From positions 1 to 9,117 of IMG/VR virus record IMGVR_UViG_2563366928_000004: a DNA stretch of 9,117 nt. One strand, 5' to 3'. Numbering within the stretch: the first letter of the stretch is position 1; every line of letters starts with the position of its first letter. Of the stretch, positions 2,124 through 2,922 are shown piece after piece. This DNA is from a virus. Its lineage: Duplodnaviria > Heunggongvirae > Uroviricota > Caudoviricetes. The notes beneath the pieces are model-generated. The model did no database searches and had not been told where the DNA came from. It saw only the letters and a list, made by a program, of their open reading frames with translations. A program made the translations under genes and the position numbers.

Positions 2124-2597
2124 TTATTTCAGGCACTGAGTGCGGATATAGTCCTGTGCCCCTTCCAGTTGCTTGTGCATCGTCATCAGCCGCTCTCTGA
2201 GGGTGAAATAATCCCGTGTAACGGTGTCTGCCAGTTGGGGGCCGGTTGCATTATCCACGCCGGAGGTGGTGGGGGCTTCACGCACGGAGCCTGGACAGGT
2301 GGCGTTGATCCGCAGGCGCTTACGACCAGCGGCAACGTCAGCGCGAAGAGTTTCATTTTCAGCTCTCGCATCGGCTAATTCCCTCAAGTATTTTGCATCG
2401 AGCGCAGCAACATCGCGCTGGCGCACCTGCATATCAGTAATGGTTGCGTTCGCCAGCTTCAGTTCACTGGCTTTGTTATCGCGCTGCGCTTTGTAGGTAA
2501 TCGCGTTATCACGGTAATGGTCTGTTGCCATCCACAGCGCACCACAGGCCACCAGCAGAATAACGATAAACGCGGAAAGCATTCGGTTTATGTTCAC
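2124..2597 (-). CDS. Rz: Rz, inner-membrane spanin (i-spanin)
   Basis: 157-aa product with an N-terminal TM helix, then [44 protein letters not shown]...[23 protein letters not shown], close to lambda Rz from memory. The GTG start overlaps the upstream TGA as GTGA. Confidence 0.9.
2186..2371 (-). CDS. Rz1: Rz1, outer-membrane lipoprotein spanin (o-spanin), embedded in the +1 frame of Rz
   Basis: [61 protein letters not shown]: lipobox VSAC and the proline-rich [11 protein letters not shown] motif characteristic of lambda Rz1; wholly inside Rz in another frame. Confidence 0.85.
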
Positions 2598-2725
2598 CCC
2601 AGCAACCCCGACGAAGACAACATCATCCAGGCCATGGAAAGAAAAAGAGCAACCAGCATTAGTGAAAATGAAATGCCGACAATTACACAGAGGATCTTCG
2701 CCAGCGTTATGAGTTTGTCTGACAT
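2594..2725 (-). CDS. Hypothetical 43-aa single-pass membrane protein ([43 protein letters not shown])
   Basis: ATG at 2725 preceded by a strong SD (AAGGGAGGATTAAGC). Its TGA stop overlaps the Rz GTG start (GTGA), suggesting translational coupling. One predicted TM helix. Confidence 0.5.
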
Positions 2726-2739
2726 GCTTAATCCTCCCT

Positions 2740-2922
2740 TCACGATTTCAACGCAATGACCAGTTTTGCCAGCCCATACAGCATCGGGGACACAGCAACA
2801 CCGACCGCCACCCACTTAATGGCAAAAGCCAGTGCTCTGCTGATGTCATCAGTTACAGGCGCTTTCAGTTCAAGGCCATTTTTCATAGTCAACCTCAACA
2901 GAATTCGTTTACACTTCGCCAT
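2740..2922 (-). CDS. Hypothetical 60-aa membrane protein with a basic N-terminus and C-terminal TM helix ([60 protein letters not shown])
   Basis: ATG at 2922 preceded by SD AAGGGAGAAC. A second in-frame ATG at 2886 also has a GAGG upstream. The ORF-track start at 2955 is a GTG with no obvious RBS. Confidence 0.5.

Follow-up and report, generated by a model that had tools for sequence, protein, structure and literature searches.

The 9,117-nucleotide (nt) stretch of DNA that we analyzed (the window; positions 1 to 9,117 of IMG/VR record IMGVR_UViG_2563366928_000004, a virus of the Caudoviricetes) is the late region of a lambdoid prophage and matches E. coli chromosomes at 100% identity. Between its endolysin gene R and its i-spanin gene Rz lie two small open reading frames (ORFs) of 60 and 43 amino acids (aa), here called ORF60 and ORF43. 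Judged by the substitutions that separate their alleles, both are real protein-coding genes under purifying selection, and each is predicted to encode a membrane protein with one transmembrane (TM) helix. They are best filed as uncharacterized accessory small membrane proteins, whose families are catalogued as hypothetical. The best reading of their distribution is that they form a shuffled accessory set, occupying a variable slot between the endolysin gene and the outer-membrane-acting genes of Escherichia and Salmonella lambdoid prophages.

From the R stop to the GTG start of Rz there are 481 nt, which ORF60 and ORF43 fill. An earlier reading of the window (the initial annotation) had described R and Rz as directly adjoining in canonical cassettes, as is indeed the case in the K-12 prophages DLP12 (rrrD/rzpD) and Qin (rrrQ/rzpQ), where the two genes overlap by GTGA. 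It had also placed the two ORFs, each with a Shine-Dalgarno (SD) sequence, in the gap, and both coincide with coding sequences of the Prokaryotic Genome Annotation Pipeline (PGAP), whose calls we took from the identical E. coli chromosome in RefSeq. The features that the argument needs first are:

3612 to 3079, minus strand: R, lysozyme of the signal-anchor-release (SAR) type, 177 aa (Phage_lysozyme PF00959, E = 3.3e-23; phrog_7)
2922 (ATG) to 2740 (TGA), minus strand: ORF60, 60 aa; SD sequence AAGGGAGAAC; PGAP WP_001446668.1 (183 nt); phrog_1115
2725 (ATG) to 2594 (TGA), minus strand: ORF43, 43 aa; SD sequence AAGGGAGGATTAAGC; PGAP WP_001280932.1 (132 nt); phrog_4906
2594 to 2597, minus strand: GTGA stop/start overlap of ORF43 and Rz (ctgGGGTGAacat), with the Rz GTG at 2597
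2597 or 2582 to 2124, minus strand: Rz, i-spanin (PF03245, E = 3.8e-47)

Coding status of ORF60 and ORF43

As many as 107 ORFs in the window reach 30 aa or more, and the presence of an ORF therefore proves nothing by itself. Phage records and contigs of IMG/VR, where two initial scans gave near-identical copies only, supplied the divergent alleles. Across ten ORF43 alleles with 64–93% nt identity, the reading frame, the length of 43–44 codons, the start and the stop were all kept. The pooled ratio of nonsynonymous to synonymous substitution rates (dN/dS) was 0.29 in the ORF43 frame, as against 0.92 and 1.87 in the other sense frames, both of which contained stops. Variability at the first, second and third codon positions (0.199, 0.126 and 0.305) followed the order 2 < 1 < 3, which fits the sense strand. 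For ORF60, dN/dS was 0.25 in frame (0.17 for codons 13–60) versus 0.7–2.5 in the other sense frames, and second codon positions were nearly invariant (variability 0.007). Where the initial annotation had allowed that only the DNA might be conserved, frame-specific dN/dS values of 0.25–0.29 show constraint at the level of the protein.

We also considered that both ORFs are spurious and conserved as DNA only. They are short, they are two among many ORFs in the window, and an antisense frame over ORF43 is open. However, the substitutions are frame-specific and skewed to synonymous changes, the start, SD sequence, stop and length are kept across differing flanks, and a PHROG family exists for each ORF. 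The probability of this explanation is close to negligible, and we consider it largely refuted already. Assignment of ORF43 to its sense strand rests on the codon-position pattern, on the conserved SD sequence, start and stop, and on the direction of the operon. The antisense ORF (80 aa, 2517–2759, plus strand) spans the whole of ORF43 and the Rz start.

Predicted structure of the two products

The initial annotation had described one hydrophobic helix in each product, and on this hydropathy and structure prediction agreed. In ORF60 the Kyte-Doolittle maximum over 19 residues was 1.88, at residues 38–56, with a basic N-terminal flank. AlphaFold2 modeled helices at residues 2–14 (basic and amphipathic) and 23–59 with a loop between them and a hydrophobic core at 37–58, so that ORF60 is predicted to be a small membrane protein with one C-terminal TM helix. 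ORF43 reached a maximum of 2.89 at residues 11–29 and was modeled as a single helix (residues 2–38; predicted local distance difference test score 88), as expected of the predicted one-TM-helix peptide. The C-terminal helix of ORF60 carries the motif AFAIKW..VG..VSP.LYG, and its invariant residues are I27, F33-A-I-K-W37, V40, G41, S45, L48, Y49 and G50; in the ORF43 alignment they are K4 and the motif V16-G17-x-S19-F20. In both proteins the invariant residues concentrate in the TM helices, and the small and polar motifs there (VGxSF; GxxxSPxxxG) point to helices that pack specifically, against a host protein or among themselves rather than against a lysis protein of the phage. Two possible kinships were rejected: hhalign gave a probability of 0.2% for ORF43 as a duplicated Rz transmembrane domain (TMD), and the 14-column VxVGxxxS match between ORF60 and ORF43, at a probability of 5%, was not accepted as homology.

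ORF60 has an internal in-frame ATG (M13, 2886) that is preceded by an invariant GAGG SD sequence and would yield a 48-aa product. Many database entries, and most distant ORF60 relatives, are called as proteins of 48–51 aa starting with MKNG. The two starts lie 12 codons apart and each has its SD sequence; the additional N-terminal residues of the long form include four basic ones (K3, K5, R6 and R10). Residues 2, 4 and 6 differ among close alleles, and we had at one point taken codons 1–12 to be untranslated (dN/dS 1.58). This was withdrawn, as divergent homologs change the codons of YKRIL(L/M)RLT at the wobble position only (ATT/ATC/ATA, CTG/CTC/CTA/CTT, ACT/ACC), which suggests that the long form is probably translated too. 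Both starts may therefore be used, giving two products. The dual start is formally like holin/antiholin arrangements.

Families and distribution

The profiles of phrog_1115 and phrog_4906 matched ORF60 (E = 3.7e-42, residues 1–60) and ORF43 (E = 2.1e-23, residues 1–43), respectively, and ORF60 also matched phrog_4493 and phrog_3246; all four families are labeled 'unknown function'. Searches of Pfam, NCBIfam, PADLOC and PDB sequences with the two proteins gave no informative match, and in Pfam at E <= 1 there was none for ORF60 and only a sub-threshold DUF3930 for ORF43. Literature searches by accession and by peptide string returned no match, and no named homolog (such as a Ynf or Ylc small protein) was found in K-12 DLP12 and Qin. 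The statement in the initial annotation that neither is a described lysis component is borne out by these results.

Homologs were confined to prophages of Escherichia, Shigella and Salmonella; one match named Pseudomonas aeruginosa was 97% identical and also bears an Escherichia name. Of 5426 complete E. coli genomes, 990 have a near-identical copy of the 541-nt region, with coverage of at least 80%. A tblastn search located ORF43 relatives in 276 phage records, mostly of phages converting to Shiga toxin (Stx) 1 or 2 production and often at positions with no annotated feature; ORF60 relatives were present in only 14. Phages PhiR5_2 and PhiR12, which grow on K-12 or C, have the same module. A profile search with the ORF60 alignment against 1.84 billion representative proteins recovered 18 clusters only and no link to a larger family. 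Among GTDB species representatives, strict patterns for ORF43 recovered one 328-bp contig (NZ_JPLE01000251.1, locus L218, from a Xanthomonas pisi assembly), which is probably contamination with E. coli phage DNA. With patterns this strict, the scan indicates little more than that the distribution is narrow.

The ORF43-Rz junction

Our redundant set of loci contains 199 copies of ORF43, and in these the start of the following gene falls between -8 and +7 nt of the ORF43 stop. That gene is Rz in 152 copies, codes for a small lipoprotein in 37, and is the ORF60 core in another 4. The ORF43 start lies 14–18 nt past the stop of the preceding gene or overlaps the stop of an antirepressor gene. ORF43 was seen only at the distal end of lysis cassettes, followed by Rz/Rz1, a small lipoprotein gene or another small TM ORF. 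Its 3' end GGGGTGA combines a purine-rich, SD-like run with its own stop and, in cassettes of the window type, with the GTG of Rz, and a terminator scan found no terminator between the two genes. From this spacing we infer that the array is a chain of translationally coupled ORFs, in which ORF43/Rz would be a termination-reinitiation junction.

The initial annotation had the ORF43 stop overlapping the Rz GTG start as GTGA. The overlap is present and tight coupling is supported, whereas the start codon is less certain: as PGAP prefers the ATG at 2582, the 4-nt overlap is a reading of the junction. We favor the GTG at 2597 as the probable start, since the resulting MNINR places a basic residue before the TMD, as do MSRV.. 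in lambda and MNRV.. in the 933W type. With this start, ORF43 reproduces exactly the canonical junction of DLP12 and Qin, in which the upstream ORF likewise ends in GTGA over the Rz start. The difference is that the upstream ORF is there the endolysin gene and here encodes a 43-aa TM peptide, about 480 nt separating R from Rz.

Such a junction could mean that ORF43 is only a coupling leader for Rz whose peptide is irrelevant, with ORF60 a passenger. The position of the ORF43 stop, always -8 to +7 nt from the next start, the succession of SD-like run, stop and start in GGGGTGA, and the replacement of the R/Rz overlap are all consistent with this explanation. A pure relay ORF, however, needs neither hydrophobicity nor conservation, and ORF43 has a dN/dS of 0.29, invariant K4, V16, G17, S19 and F20, and a length fixed at 43–44 codons. 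We consider the explanation as a whole, with ORF43 as a mere leader and ORF60 as a passenger, clearly unlikely.

In some prophages (proteins P0214 and P0217; L006, 805–1077) ORF43 is followed by the ORF60 core, joined at GGGGTGA, and such joins are called as fused or frameshifted 'proteins' of 83–90 aa. They indicate that recombination has occurred at the GGGGTGA junction.

Genomic contexts of the two families

Loci were classified by tblastn with reference proteins, and because the set is redundant the counts denote classes of arrangement and not frequencies. The commonest architecture is that of the window, S21-YdfR-R(SAR)-ORF60-ORF43-Rz/Rz1. Stx phages of the 933W and BP-4795 types have R, an antirepressor gene (189 aa), an ORF43 homolog (48 aa) and Rz, without ORF60. 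This arrangement (for example BP-4795 ORF49/ORF50 and Stx2_EH1910) shares with the window the slot itself, a stretch of about 90–105 nt after R, and an ORF43-family gene (65–79% aa identity) directly before Rz. It differs in that its cargo is the 189-aa antirepressor and not ORF60, that the ORF43 homolog starts five codons earlier and overlaps the ant stop, and that Rz starts 7 nt past the stop of the homolog instead of overlapping it. In Stx1a_99E13, R is followed by a gene for a 231-aa antirepressor-like protein, another small TM ORF (..WKFLLVWLIPFLWVVARLITAIKR, phrog_6632), ORF43 and Rz. In vB_EcoS-569R3 the order is R, a WKF-type ORF, ORF43, the ORF60 core, an ORF for a 28-aa RWW-type peptide, and Rz.

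Other contexts lack the SAR endolysin or lie away from lysis genes. In 41 loci, genes for Phage_holin_8, Phage_holin_3_7 and a GH108/PG_binding_3 endolysin without a SAR domain are followed by ORF60 (90% aa identity), an ORF43 homolog (about 65%) and a gene for a 60-aa lipoprotein (phrog_7528), and Rz is absent. In locus L156 ORF43 is missing from a cassette of holin, SAR lysozyme, ORF60 and Rz, and in L202 ORF60 lies about 1.6 kb beyond lambda-type S and R. Relatives of ORF60 were found between the genes for a tail tube protein (PF08813) and a tail assembly chaperone (L229), after a tail fiber gene (L226), between a SAR lysozyme gene and a DNA methylase gene that precedes Rz (L230), and between the genes for an endolysin-like PG_binding_1 protein and a 59-aa lipoprotein (L227). 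Neither family, then, tracks a particular holin, endolysin or spanin, and ORF60 and ORF43 occur independently of each other. Homologs are not always located between R and Rz, a constancy that the initial annotation had put forward for checking.

That neither family follows a single type of holin, endolysin or spanin speaks against dedicated functions as an antiholin, in SAR release or in binding to the Rz TMD. A dedicated antiholin or SAR-release partner would be expected to co-vary with a single holin or endolysin type, which bears directly on the suggestion in the initial annotation of antiholin-like or SAR-release functions in a pinholin/SAR-endolysin system. For such regulators (antiholin-, releasin- or Lcc6-like) one can cite the position of both ORFs inside a cassette with a pinholin (PF04971) and a SAR lysozyme, the two starts of ORF60 with their SD sequences, which superficially recall a holin/antiholin pair, and the precedents of Mu gp25 and LambdaSo Lcc6, small TM proteins outside the holin-endolysin-spanin trio on which lysis can depend. 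Nevertheless, the families also accompany PF16931, PF05449 and lambda-S-like holins and GH108 and M15 endolysins, and occur outside lysis cassettes; neither protein matches DUF2730 or has an acidic cytoplasmic domain of about 70 aa; and cassettes of the phage 21 type, DLP12 and Qin work or exist without them. We regard dedicated regulators of this kind as quite improbable. As for other roles in a specific lysis machine, no Pfam or PHROG holin family matched ORF60 or ORF43, and the holin types with which they are found (PF04971, PF16931 with PF05449, lambda-S-like, or, for ORF60 relatives in the tail clusters, none nearby) are not those of a holin-specific regulator.

The two precedents just named differ from the window's proteins in layout. 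Mu gp25, a releasin of 99 aa with N-out/C-in topology and a 73-aa acidic cytoplasmic domain (DUF2730/PF10805; PMC9239132), is likewise a small single-TM inner-membrane protein that is neither holin, endolysin nor spanin, and its gene lies among late lysis genes, beside those for a SAR endolysin and spanins. ORF60 and ORF43 lack both DUF2730 and the long acidic domain and are also found with non-SAR endolysins; ORF43 has a 10-aa tail, and ORF60 a basic N-terminal part of about 30 aa followed by its C-terminal TM helix. Lcc6 (65 aa, single TM) is required for lysis in the pinholin/SAR phage LambdaSo (bioRxiv 10.1101/2024.01.23.576932). It resembles ORF60 and ORF43 as a small single-TM protein of a lambda-like pinholin/SAR phage with no assigned family, and it differs in having an N-terminal TM helix with a 43-aa cytoplasmic tail and in being encoded near int/xis, outside the lysis cassette; the comparison was made by description, homology not being expected.

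Cassettes without Rz/Rz1 have a 59–60-aa lipoprotein gene a few nt after the small TM ORFs (phrog_7528, MKRKHWTHRMPR..LVGC; an unrelated one in L227), at 4355–4537 in L182, 2155–2337 in L007, from 4467 in L202 and at 4156–4335 in L227. No classical spanin was seen in the 8-kb loci that lack Rz, and these phages may be spanin-less or use something else. The small TM proteins might accordingly be the inner-membrane partners of small outer-membrane lipoproteins in a miniature spanin-like system, for which one can point to the phrog_7528 gene within 5 nt of ORF60-ORF43, to the RWW-type ORF60 relative of L227 that overlaps a different 59-aa lipoprotein gene, and to the window, where ORF43 abuts Rz/Rz1. 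The predicted periplasmic tails of about 2–12 residues are, however, too short to span the periplasm, ORF43 is not similar to the Rz TMD (see above), the ORF60 relatives of L229 and L226 have no lipoprotein gene nearby, and lambda-type Rz/Rz1 function without ORF60 or ORF43. This possibility appears very improbable. The proteins do not look like spanins themselves: at most about 10 residues lie beyond the TM helix in ORF43 and 2 in ORF60, and there is no lipobox in either. A role as spanin accessory factor, also raised in the initial annotation, is possible for ORF43 only. ORF43 always lies directly upstream of Rz or a small lipoprotein gene.

A hairpin upstream of ORF60 and the search for promoters

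A terminator-like hairpin marks the 5' boundary of the ORF60 module, and a non-coding stretch separates it from R:

2958 to 2986, minus strand: terminator-like hairpin (AAAACCCCGTTTG..CAAGCGAGGTTTTGTGTTT) about 40 nt 5' of ORF60, with one C.A mismatch in the stem (terminator scan match at 2981 to 2963; fold)
2987 to 3078, minus strand: non-coding stretch just 3' of R (comparison of the window with locus L003; megablast coverage pattern)

The latter is common to 933W-like Stx phages, and the cargo that follows it is ORF60 here and the antirepressor gene there. A GC-rich hairpin (AAAACCCCG...CGGGGTTTT) with an A run on one side and a T run on the other precedes each ORF60-family gene whatever lies upstream (in the window and in L182, L202, L156, L158, L226, L227, L229, L230 and L007), at 34–70 nt before the conserved ORF60 leader. 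Its inner stem differs by lineage yet remains complementary (GGCTG/CAGTCC, GAGTG/CACATC, GAACG/CGATC, GTTTG/CAAGC). From this association, the mobile unit seems to be the terminator-like hairpin together with ORF60. The flanking A and T runs would make the terminator bidirectional.

A simple consensus scan found no sigma-70-like promoter on the minus strand between 2594 and 3078. A candidate in the hairpin loop (TTGGCA/TTGACC) was rejected, having no acceptable -10 element at 15–18 nt. The pattern of a type I toxin-antitoxin system was absent as well: ORF60 and ORF43 are inside a co-directional operon, no plus-strand promoter-like site was found in or next to 2594–2960, and no Rfam family matched there.

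These observations bear on whether the two genes are morons. Lambdoid late operons carry morons such as HK97 gp15 and lambda bor and lom, and HK97 gp15 is a small inner-membrane protein of superinfection exclusion. Like morons, ORF60 and ORF43 are present or absent between conserved genes (they are absent from DLP12 and Qin, and other cargo such as ant, WKF-type or RWW-type ORFs is found elsewhere), the ORF60 family occupies several slots, and the products are predicted small membrane proteins. GC content is slightly lower in the ORF60/ORF43 region (0.46–0.49) than in R and Rz (0.53–0.57), a difference to which T-rich hydrophobic codons could contribute. The two genes differ from morons in that our crude scan detected no promoter of their own, in having a stem-loop upstream, and in being chained to the neighboring late genes. 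That they are lysogenic-conversion or superinfection-exclusion morons made in the lysogen is consistent with the finding of ORF60 relatives where morons classically sit (in the gap separating tail tube from chaperone genes, or following a tail fiber gene), with presence and absence between similar cassettes and lower GC, and with conserved TM motifs that suggest a host membrane target. Against expression in the lysogen are the missing promoter-like site, a hairpin that is 5' and not 3' of ORF60, the tight coupling of ORF43 to late lysis genes, and the failure of both proteins to match PADLOC. We consider this explanation unlikely.

A composite explanation

The explanation that we prefer, with a confidence somewhat better than even, is composite: ORF60 and ORF43 would be accessory small inner-membrane proteins of the late operon, ORF60 as a portable, moron-like module and ORF43 as a conserved adapter that relays ribosomes to Rz while its TM peptide is itself under constraint. 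The descriptive parts of this statement are well supported. As no sigma-70 promoter was detected and a terminator-like hairpin lies upstream, expression of the two would probably depend entirely on the Q-antiterminated late transcript that also carries the lysis genes. Ribosomes would then pass along the chain, from the ORF60 stop and the SD sequence that follows it to ORF43, and from the ORF43 stop, over the Rz start, to Rz; ORF43 would in this way give back to Rz the coupling that R provides in uninterrupted cassettes. The peptides would insert in the inner membrane, ORF60 with a predicted N-in topology and its basic amphipathic helix on the cytoplasmic face. They would more likely act on components of the host envelope, or on themselves, than on lysis proteins of the phage. 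Most likely they would modulate the envelope in a generic and non-essential way at a late stage of infection, for example in the timing or efficiency of lysis.

Several points weigh against this composite explanation. The function of both proteins is inferred by exclusion only. The set of loci is redundant, with many contigs present twice. The promoter scan was crude, so that a weak or non-sigma-70 promoter, and expression in the lysogen, are possible. PGAP starts Rz 11 nt past the ORF43 stop. The antisense frame across ORF43 is open in all ten alleles with a dN/dS of 0.37; on codon-position statistics only, we take it to be a mirror effect of DNA coding for a TM helix and not a gene. Finally, the fixed place of ORF43 beside Rz or a lipoprotein gene could mean a functional link to disruption of the outer membrane. 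ORF43, perhaps with ORF60-type peptides, would then be a new generic lysis factor working with the coupled Rz/Rz1 or lipoprotein, to which we assign a low probability.

The late region around the cassette

The lysis and accessory genes of the window are all on the minus strand. In the order of transcription, three tRNA genes are followed by genes for a SASA/NanS-p esterase, two small proteins (DUF1378 and DUF826), the holin, YdfR and R, and then by ORF60, ORF43, Rz with embedded Rz1, and a TonB_C lipoprotein. The remaining features are:

7437 to 5461, minus strand: SASA/NanS-p esterase
4759 to 4544, minus strand: phage-21-type class II holin (pinholin; PF04971)
4539 to 3649, minus strand: YdfR/DUF1327, 296 aa (phrog_1085)
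2371 to 2186, minus strand: Rz1, o-spanin, inside Rz (PF06085, E = 4.4e-20)
1867 to 1487, minus strand: lipoprotein with a TonB C-terminal domain (PF03544; phrog_1267)

The N-terminus of R (KYGLSAAVLALIAAGAPAP) is SAR-like, being hydrophobic and rich in Gly and Ala, and the E-9-D-6-T spacing is present. With the YdfR gene between holin and endolysin, the cassette is interrupted at both junctions; PGAP calls YdfR an incomplete pseudogene in the identical RefSeq chromosome, and the ORF in the window is intact, with 296 codons. The TonB_C lipoprotein gene 3' of Rz occupies the slot of bor in DLP12 and lambda, and the label 'Rz-like spanin' of phrog_1267 looks like a misannotation in PHROGs.

At the other end of the window, a match to the small RNA STnc100 (Rfam RF02076, 131 bits) adjoins the three tRNA genes, which are Arg-TCT, Arg-TCG and a gene with a CAT anticodon (Met according to ARAGORN); together these features occupy 8044–8233 and 8311–8560 on the minus strand. 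Stx phages have a comparable tRNA cluster just upstream of their toxin genes, and no stx genes were called between the tRNA genes and the esterase gene in the window. A 92-aa ORF (8601–8879, minus strand) is similar to the C-terminal portion of an N6/N4 DNA methylase (..FMGSGSTV..), and it is probably a fragment or the last part of a longer gene.

Significance

ORF60 and ORF43 lie within the operon that controls lysis and toxin release, and ORF43 is under-annotated in Stx phages. The gp25 and Lcc6 precedents make both proteins reasonable candidates for testing, and the comparative result narrows the hypotheses, as they are not holin- or SAR-specific partners. If ORF43 were a generic lysis factor, lysis would depend on it for its normal timing or its completeness, and with lysis the release of phage and Shiga toxin. 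Should the two prove dispensable, they would be accessory genes of an ordinary kind, and the chief gain from the finding would be a better annotation of the lysis region of Stx phages. The evidence points to dispensable accessory genes rather than to a new lysis mechanism.

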